Below are positions 58,776 to 62,657 of a stretch of DNA of 64,000 nucleotides, piece after piece. The stretch comes from Candidatus Daviesbacteria bacterium (lineage in GTDB: Bacteria > Patescibacteriota > Microgenomatia > Daviesbacterales > UBA10151), in NCBI GenBank assembly GCA_016184225.1, contig JACPDA010000004.1:672316-736315 (forward strand), read 5' to 3'. The translations under genes and the position numbers were made by a program. Position 1 is the first letter of the stretch; each line of letters begins with the position of its first letter. The notes under the pieces were generated by a model. The model ran no database searches, was not told the origin of the DNA, and was given only the letters and a program-made list of their open reading frames with translations.

Positions 58776-60170
58776 ATGGCTACAAAAGTTCATTTTTTAG
58801 GAATAGGGGGGAGTGGGGCATCGGGAGCTTCGGCGATTGCGGAAGCCCAGGGTTTTGAAGTTACCGGATGTGACCTAGAACCTCACAACGAATTCACCAC
58901 CATCTTTAAACCCAACCAACTCTTTACCGGCCACAACCCCAAACATTTAGCTTCCCACATCGGAAGTGGGAACGTAGATATCCTAGCAGTTACTCCCGCC
59001 ATTTTTTCTTTAGACCCAAACAATCCAGAACTTGTGGAAGCTAAGGAAAAAGGCATTCCGGTTATCACATGGCAACAATTTGTGGGAGAGTATCTGACCA
59101 AAAACAAGTTTGTCATTGCCATCTGCGGCACCCACGGCAAAACCACCACCACCGCTATGATTGCCAAACTATTGGAAGATGCCGGACTAGATCCCACAGT
59201 TTTACTCGGAGCAACTATTCCCAAATGGGGAACAAATTTCCGCTTGCCAAAACAAAAACATGACGGCCGTCAGTATTTTGTGGTAGAGGCAGATGAATTT
59301 AATGATAATTTTTTACCAACCAAGCCGGATATTGCAGTTGTTACCAATATAGAAATGGATCACCCGGAATATTTTAAAGACCTGGAGGCAGTTAAAGACA
59401 GCTTTAAAAAGTTTTTAATCCAAACTAAAAAGACTGTAGTCGCCAATTTAACCGATCCCGGAGCTGCCGAAGTAGTAAAGGTTGTCATGAAGGAACCAAA
59501 ATCACAAACGTCCTCCGATCGTGGGACAAATGTACAATACTTAGATTATACCAGAAATGAATTGGGTATGAACTTACAAATCCCAGGAGAGTTTAACAGA
59601 CTAAACGCTAAAGCTGCCATGCAGGTGGGGCTTTTATTGGGGATAGAACCAGCAACCATCAAAAGAAGTTTAGAAAACTACACCGGAGCCAGCAAAAGGT
59701 TTGAGTATATTGGACAGTATAAAGACGCCCAAGTTTATTCTGATTTCGGCCACCACCCGACAGAAATAGAAAAAACCATGGAGGCTGCCCGGGAAAAATT
59801 TCCGGACCAGCGGATATTGTTAATTTATCAACCACACATGTTTTCCCGGACTAAAGTTTTGTTTAACGATTTTGTAAAAGTTTTTCAAAAAGTACCCGTG
59901 GATAGAACCTTTGTTATGGACATTTATCCATCAAGAGAGGTAGATACCGGTTTAATTACCAGCAAACAACTAGTTGAAGCAATCCAGAAAGGAGTGGTAC
60001 CAAAATTTCGCAATAGCGAAAAAATGGTACCTTTAGTTTTATATATAGGAGAGACAAAGCAAGTATTGGAAAAATTAAAACCGGAAATTAAGCCGGGTGA
60101 TATTGTCTTTTTTATGAGTGCCGGAGATACTGATAAATTGGCAAAAGAACTAGTCGGCGGGCTTAAATGA
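58776..60170 (+). CDS. murC: UDP-N-acetylmuramate--L-alanine ligase with short in-frame REP insertion
   Basis: VHFLGIGGSGASG N-terminus and Mur ligase central and C-terminal domains. [11 protein letters not shown] is encoded by the family-G REP at 58946-58975. Confidence 0.85.
   Translation: MATKVHFLGIGGSGASGASAIAEAQGFEVTGCDLEPHNEFTTIFKPNQLFTGHNPKHLASHIGSGNVDILAVTPAIFSLDPNNPELVEAKEKGIPVITWQQFVGEYLTKNKFVIAICGTHGKTTTTAMIAKLLEDAGLDPTVLLGATIPKWGTNFRLPKQKHDGRQYFVVEADEFNDNFLPTKPDIAVVTNIEMDHPEYFKDLEAVKDSFKKFLIQTKKTVVANLTDPGAAEVVKVVMKEPKSQTSSDRGTNVQYLDYTRNELGMNLQIPGEFNRLNAKAAMQVGLLLGIEPATIKRSLENYTGASKRFEYIGQYKDAQVYSDFGHHPTEIEKTMEAAREKFPDQRILLIYQPHMFSRTKVLFNDFVKVFQKVPVDRTFVMDIYPSREVDTGLITSKQLVEAIQKGVVPKFRNSEKMVPLVLYIGETKQVLEKLKPEIKPGDIVFFMSAGDTDKLAKELVGGLK
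58946..58975. repeat. REP-like element, family G, inside murC
   Basis: TAGCTTCCCACATCGGAAGTGGGAACGTAG is translated in the same frame (LASHI...) as the copy inside the holB-like gene. Confidence 0.75.
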
Positions 60171-62657
60171 AGTCACAAAATCTTTAAACTGATTACCTCT
60201 ATCTTCATAATCCTTAAATAAATTAAAGCTGGTTGAAGCAGGGGAGAGGAGAACTATTTTGCCTGGAGTAGTATGTTTAAATGCAATTTCTACTGCATCC
60301 TGCATGCTGTCAGTATCGAATTTCCGAATTTTCAATTTTAAATTTTTAATTTTCAAACTCACAGCTTTCCAGATTTTTGTACCAGTATCCGGAAACAGAA
60401 TTAGGTTTTTTATCTTTGACTTGGCAATTGCCTTACCCAAAATAGAATAATCTATACCTCTGTCATACCCACCGGCAATTAAAGTTTCAACATTTCTTCC
60501 CAGGGCAGCCAGTGCCTCAACTGTAGATTGTGGAATGGTCGACAGCGAATCATTATAGAATCTGATTCCGGAAATTTCAGCCACAAATTCCAGCCGATGA
60601 GGAAGGGGCTTGAAATTGATGATTGCCTCTTCAATTTTCTCATCCGGAATTTTAAATAATCTTCCTATAATAATGGCTGGCACAATATTTAGGAGATTAA
60701 ATTCTCCCAAAAGAGGGATCGTATCTTTGTGTACTACATCCGAAACCATCTGTTTATCTTTCTTGGAAAAGGCAATTTTTTTGGCATGACTTTGTTCCGC
60801 AATATATTTAAACTCCGCAATATCTTGATTATAGATTAGATAATCCTGACTTGTTTGGAACTTGGTGATATTATTTTTTGCCCTGACATAAAGAGGGAAA
60901 TCTCCGTGACGATCTAAATGTTCCGGATAGATATTGGTCATCACGCCTATATGAGGACTTTTATCCAGATCTTCCAGCTGAAAAGAGGAAAGTTCATAAA
61001 CCACTACCGAATTTTCGTTTAAATTGTCTAATAAATCCAGAGCAGGTTTGCCGATATTACCTACCAAATGTGCATCCATTCCGCCCTTTTTTAACACTTC
61101 ATATATTAACGAGGCAGTGGTACTCTTGCCCTTGGTGCCGGTTATTCCAATAATTTTCCCTTTAAAGTTATTGAAAAAAAATTGAGTAGCTGATGTAATA
61201 ACTTTTCCTTGTTTCTTTGCTTCTTTTATTTCCGGAAGATAGGGGATACCCGGAGATTTTATTATTACATCATAATCCTTTAACTTTTCTAAATAATTTT
61301 CTCCATCACTTTGATCTGCAATGCCAATTTTCCTATTGGGGTAGTGTTTTTTAAAATAATCCAGAGTAGCTCTTCCTTCTCTGCCAAATCCTAGAATCAA
61401 AGTTTTCTGATCCTCAAAACTCTGTAAGAGCTTAGGAATTTCCTGACCATCTGTCTTTACCCTTTTAATACTTAAAGAAATTGCAGTTTTTATCTCATCA
61501 ACAGTTGCCACGCACTCAAATGGCTTAACCTCGCCGTTTTCACGGAGCAAGCCGCGAACTACAGGTATCAGATTTTCATCTTCCAATAAATTTTTGCCGA
61601 AAATTTTTTCAGTTTTGCTTCCCAGAAAAGGGTAGAGTAAAAGATAGGTAGATACGCATTTTGGACATTTACCACACCATATGCCTTTTTTAAAACCCTT
61701 GTTACAACTTCTAAACAGTTTGTGATACTTGTCCATCTTAGAAAAAATCTCGGCTATTTGAAGTTCACCCAAGTTCCTTAAGAAGCTAAAATAATTTGTA
61801 ATGGTAGATAAATACTTTTTGGAATAATCCCTAAAATCATGTTCAAATTCAGTAGTTTTGGAGTACTGATGGTTTATTTCCTGACCCAGCCATTTCAGAT
61901 TACTTTCATTAGAACTGGCTTCATTGGAAACAACCAGATTTTTATAGTCATATAAGACTCCGACCAGAGTAGAAAGGAATGCCAAATAAGCAGAAAAGGG
62001 GGTATGGCCATTCAAATATCCTTGCCCATTAAGCTCCAGAAGCTTTGGGTCTATTGTTCTTCTAATAATTATCGGATTTTTACATCCGCCAACTTCTGCA
62101 ATTTTTATTGCCGCATCAGTTGGGTTTAAGATTAGGCAGTTAAACTCTCCTCCCTTCTTACTAATAGACTCCAGTGTCACGGCGGAATCCTTTCCTCCGC
62201 CAACTAAAACCAAATCCCGATCCTGTAAATGCCCAGCATATTTAGCTTGCAACCTTTCAGGTTGACGCACAAATTTAACCAGATCCTTTTGGGTAAAATC
62301 AATCTGGTTCTTATAAAAAAATTCCCCCAGGCCTTTGATTAGGAGATTCTGCCAAAAAGCAATTTGCTCCTCATTTAAGAAACCGGCTTTGATAATAATT
62401 TGCGGGGAACAGGTTGCTTTCCAGTAACTTAGCAGCTCAACCATCCCTAAATTAAATACCAAATTCTGCAATGCTTCCGGGCCAATTTCATCCAGTCTTG
62501 CCTTTGAAACATTCAACAAAATAACTTCCGGGTTAAATTTAATATCAGGATCAAGAAGAAAATCAAAAGCTATTTTTAAATTTCCCTGCTCAAGCACTGT
62601 CTGGTAGCCTTTATAAATAAACTGACTATGTCTTTTCCTGAGTGTATTAAAATTCAT
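60150..62657 (-). CDS. murD: fusion ORF: N-terminal ~400-aa PP-loop ATP-pyrophosphatase-like domain with Cys cluster, plus C-terminal UDP-N-acetylmuramoylalanine--D-glutamate ligase (MurD)
   Basis: C-terminal half has the MurD pattern (ILGFGREGRATLDYF...GTKGKSTTASLI...). N-terminal half has a PP-loop-like LVGGGKDSAVTL and a CGKCPKC zinc-ribbon-like cluster. No in-frame stop or ATG separates the halves. It also contains the REP GCAACCTTTCAGGTTGAC at 62236-62265. Confidence 0.6.
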   Translation of the reverse strand: MNFNTLRKRHSQFIYKGYQTVLEQGNLKIAFDFLLDPDIKFNPEVILLNVSKARLDEIGPEALQNLVFNLGMVELLSYWKATCSPQIIIKAGFLNEEQIAFWQNLLIKGLGEFFYKNQIDFTQKDLVKFVRQPERLQAKYAGHLQDRDLVLVGGGKDSAVTLESISKKGGEFNCLILNPTDAAIKIAEVGGCKNPIIIRRTIDPKLLELNGQGYLNGHTPFSAYLAFLSTLVGVLYDYKNLVVSNEASSNESNLKWLGQEINHQYSKTTEFEHDFRDYSKKYLSTITNYFSFLRNLGELQIAEIFSKMDKYHKLFRSCNKGFKKGIWCGKCPKCVSTYLLLYPFLGSKTEKIFGKNLLEDENLIPVVRGLLRENGEVKPFECVATVDEIKTAISLSIKRVKTDGQEIPKLLQSFEDQKTLILGFGREGRATLDYFKKHYPNRKIGIADQSDGENYLEKLKDYDVIIKSPGIPYLPEIKEAKKQGKVITSATQFFFNNFKGKIIGITGTKGKSTTASLIYEVLKKGGMDAHLVGNIGKPALDLLDNLNENSVVVYELSSFQLEDLDKSPHIGVMTNIYPEHLDRHGDFPLYVRAKNNITKFQTSQDYLIYNQDIAEFKYIAEQSHAKKIAFSKKDKQMVSDVVHKDTIPLLGEFNLLNIVPAIIIGRLFKIPDEKIEEAIINFKPLPHRLEFVAEISGIRFYNDSLSTIPQSTVEALAALGRNVETLIAGGYDRGIDYSILGKAIAKSKIKNLILFPDTGTKIWKAVSLKIKNLKLKIRKFDTDSMQDAVEIAFKHTTPGKIVLLSPASTSFNLFKDYEDRGNQFKDFVTSFKPAD
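62236..62265. repeat. REP-like hairpin (TAGCTTGCAACCTTTCAGGTTGAC) inside the murD fusion ORF
   Basis: Same hairpin as in the REP cluster at 18320-18355 (TTTAGCTTGCAACCTTTCAGGTTGC). Confidence 0.7.

Follow-up and report, generated by a model that had tools for sequence, protein, structure and literature searches.

A MurL-MurD2 fusion protein of Candidatus Daviesbacteria that probably serves an alternative D-glutamate route to peptidoglycan

What is made by a single open reading frame (ORF) of Candidatus Daviesbacteria that ends in a Mur ligase but begins with some 400 residues that no ordinary MurD possesses is the question raised by the locus described here. The window, by which we mean the whole stretch of 64,000 nucleotides analyzed from contig JACPDA010000004.1, contains this ORF in complete form on its minus strand (60150..62657), with an ATG start and 835 codons followed by a stop at 60150-60152. 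A sequence-only reading of the window had described the product as a canonical MurD preceded by an unassigned PP-loop ATP-pyrophosphatase-like and zinc-ribbon domain, and had offered two explanations, a genuine fusion or an artefact upstream of a MurD with a non-ATG start. The 835-residue ORF and the motifs on which that description was based were all found as claimed, namely LVGGGKDSAVTL at amino acids (aa) 151-162 (62172-62207, minus strand, as are all features of the ORF unless stated otherwise), CGKCPKC at aa 328-334 (61656-61676), GFGREGRATLDYF at aa 423-435, and GTKGKSTTASLI at aa 507-518. We suggest, with a probability of roughly 0.78, that the product is a bifunctional MurL-MurD2 enzyme that would perform both steps of an alternative D-glutamate route to the peptidoglycan precursor. 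The 835-aa MurL-MurD2 fusion itself is genuine, conserved, and old.

In Xanthomonas oryzae, the alternative route consists of MurD2 and MurL (XOO_1320 and XOO_1319; Feng et al. 2017; PMC8788868, PMC5808125). The N-terminal half can no longer be regarded as an unassigned PP-loop-like domain, because family models from NCBIfam and Pfam assign it to MurL, an already known epimerase family. Residues 11-396 match the NCBIfam model NF041275 (MurL, UDP-N-acetyl-alpha-D-muramoyl-L-alanyl-L-glutamate epimerase) with an E value of 5.3e-73 and 246 bits over model positions 10-393 of 447. The precomputed Pfam annotation of an identical database protein (P0001) and of its orthologues, including P0003, lists MurL_N (PF26299), MurL_epimerase_C (PF26298), Mur_ligase_M, and Mur_ligase_C; the two MurL domains of the fusion protein are already recognized by databases. 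MurL_N covers approximately aa 1-140 (62238..62657), where the Pfam assignment coincides with the NF041275 match from aa 11 and with a confident beta-sheet and helices in the AlphaFold (AF2) model, and the predicted catalytic QueC-like PP-loop domain with its C-terminal helices (MurL_epimerase_C) covers approximately aa 143-403 (61449..62231). The N-terminus of the fusion protein, MNFNTLRKRH..., agrees with the family consensus MxxxxLRxKHPxF. In a BLASTP comparison, the annotated MurL of Xanthomonas sacchari is 35% identical to aa 72-383 (E 1.5e-58), and the motifs GGGKDS, NGHxP, NHQxSK, SCN...WCGxCPKC, and KPFEC are common to both proteins. A scan of the N-terminal half against a Pfam set without PF26299 and PF26298 gave only sub-threshold matches to DUF6395 and QueC, and a single-sequence search of the PDB gave MurD matches only and none for aa 1-410.

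The C-terminal half (approximately aa 409-835; 60153..61433) was correctly recognized by the sequence-only reading as a full MurD, but it is not simply canonical, as the residues that determine L-glutamate use in MurD2 are present. Residues 429-829 match TIGR01087 (murD) with 340 bits against a cutoff of 212, and the closest sequence in the PDB is that of MurD 3lk7 (E 6e-60). At the catalytic positions K115, N138, H183, and K198 of E. coli MurD (the alignment is shifted by +1 to allow for the initiator Met), identical residues are found in the fusion protein and in every aligned homologue, and the ATP-binding P-loop of the Mur ligases, GTKGKSTTASLI (61104..61139), carries K511 as the equivalent of K115. 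It has been reported that the glutamate-site residues D182, K348, A414, and L416 of E. coli MurD correspond to E197, R358, P433, and F435 of MurD2, that the double mutation E197D/R358K converts MurD2 to D-glutamate, that K319T E. coli MurD accepts L-glutamate, and that the single mutations P433A and F435L leave the specificity of MurD2 unchanged (PMC8788868). At positions 182/319/348/414/416, E. coli MurD has D/K/K/A/L, X. sacchari MurD2 has E/I/R/P/F, and the fusion protein has E579/L705/R733/T809/F811. E579 (60921..60923) corresponds to D182 of E. coli MurD and to the L-glutamate determinant E197 of X. oryzae MurD2, and R733 (60459..60461) corresponds to K348 and to the second determinant, R358. 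L705 (60543..60545) occupies the position of K319, which is K in the canonical MurDs examined, including three PDB MurDs compared residue by residue, and I or L in MurD2-type ligases; the use of the loss of K319 as a MurD2 criterion was derived in this analysis, and the literature gives only the effect of K319T.

The signature is shared widely. Among 116 fused homologues, position 182 is E in 90 and D in 25, position 319 is L or I in 115, position 348 is R in 115, position 414 is mixed, and position 416 is F or Y in all 116. In 67 MurDs linked to murL in many phyla, the corresponding residues are E (67), L or I (66), R (67), a mixture at 414, and mostly F or Y at 416. The separate MurDs that lie beside stand-alone MurL, MurE-MurL, and MurB-MurL have the same signature as MurD2. 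Compared with canonical MurD (1e0d/2jff from E. coli and 3lk7 from Streptococcus agalactiae), the fusion protein retains the three-domain Mur-ligase architecture, a TIGR01087 score above the cutoff, and K115/N138/H183/K198, but D182, K348, L416, and K319 are replaced in it by E, R, F, and L, respectively, and it carries the 400-aa MurL extension at its N-terminus. This residue signature is strong support, although not proof of L-glutamate use, for placing the ligase half with MurD2 and not with canonical MurD, and L-glutamate is most likely the residue that the ligase half attaches to the peptidoglycan precursor.

The suggestion that the N-terminal half contains a PP-loop was borne out by structure prediction and by conservation. 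The AF2 model of aa 1-412, made with 92 homologues, has a mean predicted local distance difference test (pLDDT) value of 96.6 and a predicted template modelling score (pTM) of 0.94, and a Foldseek search with this model matched QueC (E 4e-6) as well as QatC. A profile of stand-alone MurLs reaches the PP-loop protein TtuA (E 2.8e-5), with vGGGkDSav aligned to VSGGKDSAV. The loop GGGKDS (aa 153-158; 62184..62201), a variant of SGGxDS with G in place of S as its first residue, directly follows strand E145-151 and is predicted to hold the alpha- and beta-phosphates of ATP. G155, K156, D157, and S158 are invariant in the 92 fused homologues; in a 69-row alignment of the MurL domain, consisting of 68 stand-alone MurLs and the domain of this protein, G155 is invariant and K156, D157, and S158 are at least 90% conserved.

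The CGKCPKC cluster, which had been taken for a zinc ribbon, does belong to an invariant four-cysteine site, but this is not a separate ribbon and is instead integral to the QueC-like domain. The site, C318-x9-C328-x2-C331-x2-C334 (61656..61706), is a predicted structural zinc site of the QueC type; all four cysteines are invariant both in the 92 fused homologues and in the 69-row alignment, the pattern is also found in X. sacchari MurL, and a four-cysteine zinc motif has been described as conserved in QueC and QatC (PMC13376578). A further cysteine, Cys382 (61512..61514), shows no variation in either alignment; it lies outside the zinc cluster in the motif KPFEC and is a candidate for the acid/base residue of the epimerization. 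K378 and P379 of the same motif do not vary among the 92 fused homologues and reach a conservation of at least 90% in the 69-row alignment, and KPFEC as a whole is kept in X. sacchari MurL. Y78, K80, H218, N262-H263-Q264, K267, and E272 are likewise invariant across the 92 fused homologues, and from this conservation we infer that they and C382 are the candidates for proton transfer.

With QueC (3bl5), Cap9 (9nto), and QatC (9y02), the MurL domain shares a Rossmann-like PP-loop core, an xGGxDS loop after strand 1, and a C-terminal four-cysteine site, and the chemistry to be expected is carboxylate AMPylation with release of pyrophosphate (PPi). It differs from these proteins in being only 15-18% identical to them, in having an additional N-terminal domain of about 140 aa and additional C-terminal helices, in the G that replaces S at the start of the loop, in its substrate, which is a UDP-muramyl dipeptide and not 7-deazaguanine, and in its outcome, which according to a proposal in the literature is inversion and hydrolysis and not transfer to a nitrogen nucleophile (PMC8788868). 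MurL has been shown to require ATP and Mg2+, to release AMP, and to convert the terminal L-glutamate to D-glutamate unidirectionally (PMC5808125; PMC8788868), and adenylation of the alpha-carboxylate of the terminal glutamate by MurL has been proposed (PMC8788868). The PP-loop fold is consistent with the ATP/Mg2+ requirement and with the release of AMP (PMC5808125). PP-loop enzymes AMPylate their first substrate (PMC13376578), which is consistent with the proposed adenylation of the alpha-carboxylate. A review from 2018 described MurL as having no known conserved domains (PMC5808125), and we found no paper that assigns MurL to the PP-loop family in the literature searched. The QueC-like fold would provide a structural rationale for the unexplained ATP-to-AMP requirement of MurL and points to residues for mutation.

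Based on these comparisons, the following course of reactions may be proposed. MurC, encoded by the adjacent gene, would supply UDP-N-acetylmuramoyl-L-alanine (UDP-MurNAc-L-Ala) to the ligase half. In the first step, the MurD2-type ligase (approximately aa 409-835) would join L-glutamate, and not D-glutamate, to UDP-MurNAc-L-Ala with conversion of ATP to ADP. In the second step, the QueC-like PP-loop domain of MurL (aa 1-403) would consume a second ATP, yielding AMP and PPi, in adenylating the terminal L-glutamate at its alpha-carboxylate, and this adenylation would acidify the alpha-proton and enable inversion. For the fusion protein, we infer the enzymatic activities, the order of the reactions, the adenylation mechanism, and any channelling of the intermediate.

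Several points weigh against this bifunctional reading. The NF041275 score of 246 bits is far below the equivalog cutoff of 700, a cutoff tuned to Xanthomonadales, and leaves orthology in the strict sense uncertified; stand-alone MurLs from Patescibacteria likewise reach just 250-280 bits. Alignment to X. sacchari MurL indicated that the C-terminal tail of about 50 residues found in characterized-type MurLs is absent from the fusion protein, in which the NF041275 match ends at model position 393 of 447, compared with 444 in stand-alone MurLs. In the ligase half, position 414 is T809, compared with P in MurD2, while position 416 is F811, as in MurD2; the R at position 348 also occurs in D-glutamate-specific streptococcal MurDs (PMC8788868 and our PDB comparison); and 25 of the 116 fused homologues have D rather than E at position 182. 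The full-length AF2 model, with a pTM of only 0.69, defines neither how the two halves are arranged nor a fixed interface that would imply channelling. The absence of a glutamate racemase could be checked solely in the 64-kb window and in the short flanks of related loci.

Some of these points leave room for a different interpretation of a real fusion, namely that the PP-loop domain is not an epimerase and, for example, amidates the adenylated alpha-carboxylate of glutamate to iso-glutamine or activates some other carboxylate, with the ligase being an ordinary D-glutamate MurD and the racemase being encoded elsewhere. It is typically a nitrogen or sulfur nucleophile that receives the adenylated carbonyl from a PP-loop enzyme (PMC13376578), which would suit such a role, as would the MurL score under the equivalog cutoff, the missing characterized-type tail, and a murI search confined to the window and the fetched loci. 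However, all MurL motifs that are conserved between Xanthomonas and Patescibacteria are present, and the ligase has the E/R pair that experiments have identified as determining L-glutamate use and does not have the K319 of the canonical MurDs examined. An L-glutamate ligase without an epimerase would be useless or harmful. Moreover, neither in the window nor at the orthologous locus L002 does the protein have a glutaminase or amidotransferase as a fused or neighbouring partner, and tblastn with E. coli MurI as the query found no MurI-like sequence in the 64-kb window or in any fetched murL locus. We therefore consider an amidation-type role unlikely.

Of the two explanations offered by the sequence-only reading, the first, a genuine fusion of both halves in one chain, was upheld. 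The ORF has no internal stops, according to both the ORF list and the translation, and an identical 835-aa protein (100% identity; P0001, 'Candidatus Daviesbacteria bacterium') is recorded on seven contigs, the longest of 769,731 bp. In all of the 120 best homologue clusters, MurL and Mur-ligase domains occur in a single chain; these proteins are 36-100% identical to the fusion protein and 742-981 aa long except for one fragment of 530 aa, and their named hosts are Daviesbacteria, Microgenomates, or Patescibacteria. At the junction (aa 403-419, DGQEIPKLLQSFEDQKT; 61401..61451), the last MurL helix is followed almost at once by the N-terminus that MurD natively has. Separate MurDs start with MNKILSSFENKKILILGFGREG, and it is with this extreme N-terminus that the junction peptide LLQSFEDQKTLILGFGREG aligns; the entire native MurD start has thus been kept inside the fusion. 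The full-length AF2 model has a mean pLDDT of 94.3, with averages of at least 87 in the 10-residue blocks across the junction, and the linker is short and ordered in this model. The fusion most likely arose from the widespread adjacent murL-murD2 pair that would have lost the murL stop codon together with the MurL tail of about 50 residues.

The statement that neither ATG nor stop separates the halves also held, as Met308 and Met527 have no ATG between them; other possible in-frame starts close to the junction are limited to GTG383 and TTG420. A MurD separately translated from TTG420, with the apparent fusion resulting from a frameshift or a sequencing or assembly error, would be in keeping with the position of TTG420 in frame behind a GAGGA at a spacing like that of a ribosome-binding site and with the fact that murL and murD are separate genes in most genomes. 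This explanation is very improbable: GAGGA belongs to Phe-Glu-Asp codons and is missing in L002 and in two further orthologous loci (L007 and L053), of which L053 has TTA in place of TTG420, and a conserved internal start was rejected for this reason. In addition, stand-alone MurDs start about 10 residues before TTG420 and those residues (LLQSFEDQK) are kept in the fusion, the junction is ordered in the AF2 model, the identical protein recurs on seven contigs, and the 120 single-chain clusters reach down to 36% identity. Just as implausible is a decayed or regulatory MurL remnant without catalysis in front of a ligase that is active alone, for which the lost tail and a repeat-derived segment in one MurL loop might speak, given that the PP-loop, the four cysteines, H218, N262-H263-Q264, K267, E272, and C382 are invariant in the 92 fused homologues and conserved in stand-alone MurLs, that the AF2 pLDDT of this half is 96.6, and that the repeat segment is confined to a variable loop without added length.

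The MurL-MurD2 protein is best compared with the Xanthomonas route, of which it is a fused variant, in a phylum for which no prior description was found in the literature searched. Both enzyme families are shared, murL lies upstream of murD2, and the common features comprise the MurL motifs GGGKDS, NGHxP, NHQxSK, the four cysteines, and KPFEC as well as E/I-or-L/R/F at ligase positions 182/319/348/416. In a tblastn search of a plasmid collection, the annotated X. sacchari genes were found as murL followed by murD with an overlap of 20 nucleotides (nt) (L090, NZ_CP010410.1). Unlike the Xanthomonas pair, the Daviesbacteria protein is one polypeptide with the MurL tail of about 50 residues deleted and with T and not P at position 414, its halves are merely 35% (MurL) and 27% (MurD2) identical to their Xanthomonas counterparts, and its host belongs to the Patescibacteria or candidate phyla radiation (CPR), a group outside the published distribution. 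Other fusions of one-pathway enzymes in a single chain are MurE/MurF (NF008896), MurC/Ddl (NF011171), and MurF/Alr (NF008897), and these models gave weak partial matches to the fusion protein, but their partners are other than MurL and MurD; among the NCBIfam matches, there was no model for a whole MurL-MurD fusion. Our literature search on a MurL-MurD fusion or on MurL in Patescibacteria yielded nothing beyond the two reviews from the Dairi group (PMC8788868, PMC5808125). A 'MurL' match in PMC2922099 was rejected as it is an abbreviation of 'Mur_ligase' only, and cell-wall genes of CPR bacteria are not treated in PMC8871954.

NCBI names the identical protein simply 'UDP-N-acetylmuramoyl-L-alanine--D-glutamate ligase'. 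This plain MurD naming hides half of the function and probably states the wrong substrate chirality. The identity as MurL-MurD2 suggests how uncultivated bacteria with small genomes could obtain cell-wall D-glutamate while dispensing with both a racemase and free D-glutamate. For studies of the coupling of the two steps, an enzyme that is naturally a single chain would be convenient.

According to the published distribution, the route occurs in relatively few genera, comprising some Gamma- and Alphaproteobacteria and rare actinobacteria, and this narrow distribution led to its proposal as a narrow-spectrum drug target (PMC8788868). A HMMER scan with the N-terminal half, in contrast, retrieved 2,475 clusters (at 50% identity) at E <=1e-3, and 1,143 at E <=1e-30, and at least 593 loci encoding a MurL relative were found in species-representative genomes of many phyla. 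MurL-like sequences are thus distributed much more broadly than the 'relatively few genera' of the 2021 review (PMC8788868). In the best 80 of the at least 593 loci (L007-L086), the MurL relatives have identities of 41-61%; 77 of the 80 have a separate murL and three have a fused one, and most have a murD with the MurD2 signature directly downstream. The host labels of these 80 loci include many Patescibacteria lineages and also Bacteroidales, Lachnospiraceae, Clostridium, Ruminococcus, Acidobacteria, Rokuibacteriota, Omnitrophota, and Vitreimonas; a few others (the 'Enterobacteriaceae' and 'Pseudomonadales' bins) look like binning errors.

Among the best 150 of the 2,475 MurL clusters, roughly one-quarter are at least 700 aa long, suggesting fusions, and the remainder are of stand-alone length. 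Selected long chains proved to be MurE-MurL with MurL at the C-terminus, MurB-MurL, MurD-MurL in the reverse order, and MurL-MurD-M20 amidohydrolase (examples of these other fusions are P0122 at locus L003, 10001-12799; P0137 at locus L005, 3663-6038; P0130 and P0088; and P0236). That MurL has been joined repeatedly, and independently, to other enzymes of its pathway is a separate line of evidence for an action of the MurL domain on Mur intermediates. At L003 and L005, a separate murD of the E/L/R type directly follows the MurL fusion gene. Tentatively, and at slightly less than even odds, we suggest that MurD2/MurL might be a major D-glutamate route across Patescibacteria that replaces the racemase, and that it may be common in Bacteroidales, Lachnospiraceae, and other phyla; in the fusion of Daviesbacteria and relatives, the L-glutamate intermediate may move straight from the active site of the ligase to that of the epimerase, and the repeated fusions would mark MurL as a core enzyme of the Mur pathway with QueC-like adenylation.

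Two observations were made on plasmid records. Three Pseudonocardia plasmids (NZ_CP010991.1, NZ_CP011869.1, and NZ_CP052772.1) encode a MurL-like 'hypothetical protein' with 29-31% identity over about 80% of the domain. The X. sacchari record NZ_CP010410.1, labelled 'plasmid unnamed' (508,653 bp), carries, besides the presumably essential murL-murD pair, a gene for a bifunctional aspartate kinase/diaminopimelate decarboxylase and ssb, and it may be a chromid or a misassigned piece of the chromosome.

Downstream of the fusion gene lies a gene on the plus strand (58776..60170) that was assigned by its domain composition (Pfam Mur_ligase, Mur_ligase_M, and Mur_ligase_C) to murC, the UDP-MurNAc:L-Ala ligase. 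The two genes are convergent, and their 3' ends overlap by 21 nt (60150-60170), leaving no space for an intervening terminator; at L002, the two genes are likewise convergent and overlap by 15 nt. Beyond murC follow gyrB and a gene similar to that of the DNA polymerase III delta-prime subunit, and the fusion gene is flanked on its opposite side by a gene for a histidine phosphatase. L002 is syntenic with the window and has alr, ddl, and another Mur ligase gene within 6 kb. The 64-kb window contains no MurD-like gene other than the fusion ORF, whose G+C content is 36.7%, compared with 42.8% for the window.

The N-terminal half had also been said to host an insertion of a repetitive extragenic palindromic (REP) element. 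A hairpin repeat is indeed present, and it matches a copy near a gene similar to a Y1 transposase, but it adds no length, and orthologues have it at the same codons. The element, 31 nt long (TTTAGCTT-GCAACC-TTTCA-GGTTG-ACGCACA; 62241..62271, plus strand), is read in frame as part of a variable loop on the surface of MurL, where it encodes VRQPERLQAK within aa 129-139; the block of aa 131-140 has a mean pLDDT of 84 and falls within the most variable stretch of the alignment. The 31-mer occurs twice in the 64-kb window, the second copy (18332-18362) being identical at 30 of 31 nt and located between genes, where it forms part of a small hairpin-repeat array downstream of the transposase-like ORF. 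At L002, where the fusion gene is 76% identical overall, the 31-mer stands at the same codons (10387-10417) and is identical to the copy at 18332. An insertion that added length was rejected, given that no residues of the query fall into sparse alignment columns, that the loops of close homologues are equally long, and that these homologues have the peptide as well. The hairpin segment is real repeat-derived sequence that tolerates translation and is not private to this gene copy, and it is irrelevant to the question of the fusion.

The transposase-like ORF (17505-18191; Y1_Tnp, IS200-like and resembling the REP-associated tyrosine transposases, RAYT) is flanked by inverted hairpin repeats (17422-17458 and 18207-18247), and the array (18311-18414) consists of units of 50-52 nt with a different hairpin in each. 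In a metagenome scan, a 24-mer of the element was found in two more copies (L087, 1606-1629; L088, 1171-1194), each inside an unrelated ORF and in the same frame, one similar to peptide deformylase (...LQPERLQAK...) and the other to pheS (...VLQPVLQPVLQPERLQAK...). The hairpin GCAACC-TTTCA-GGTTGC and its conserved flanks are always read as QPERLQAK in at least three unrelated genes, and the pheS-like ORF also has tandem VLQP units. REP/RAYT elements and the palindromic elements of the Rickettsia type, the latter of which sit in frame inside genes, are known systems of this kind. The present element resembles them as a short hairpin repeat found near a Y1 transposase-like gene and inside coding sequences in a constant frame, but differs in the small number of copies seen, with only two in the 64-kb window and two from the metagenome scan.

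The murC gene of L002 (12476-13957) encodes 493 aa, compared with 464 aa in the window, and contains a 22-nt stretch (13100-13121) with a 95% match to the hairpin-repeat array of the window, which suggests that it carries a repeat-derived in-frame insertion. The loop between the N-terminal domain and the PP-loop strand of MurL (equivalent to aa 125-145) is highly variable in length among the homologues P0007, P0010, P0011, P0013, P0015, and P0071. Several of these loops hold similar odd peptides, such as SYLVTRLGYVPGG and SYLVGRLAHVLGR, and the loop may be a hotspot for repeat-derived in-frame insertions.

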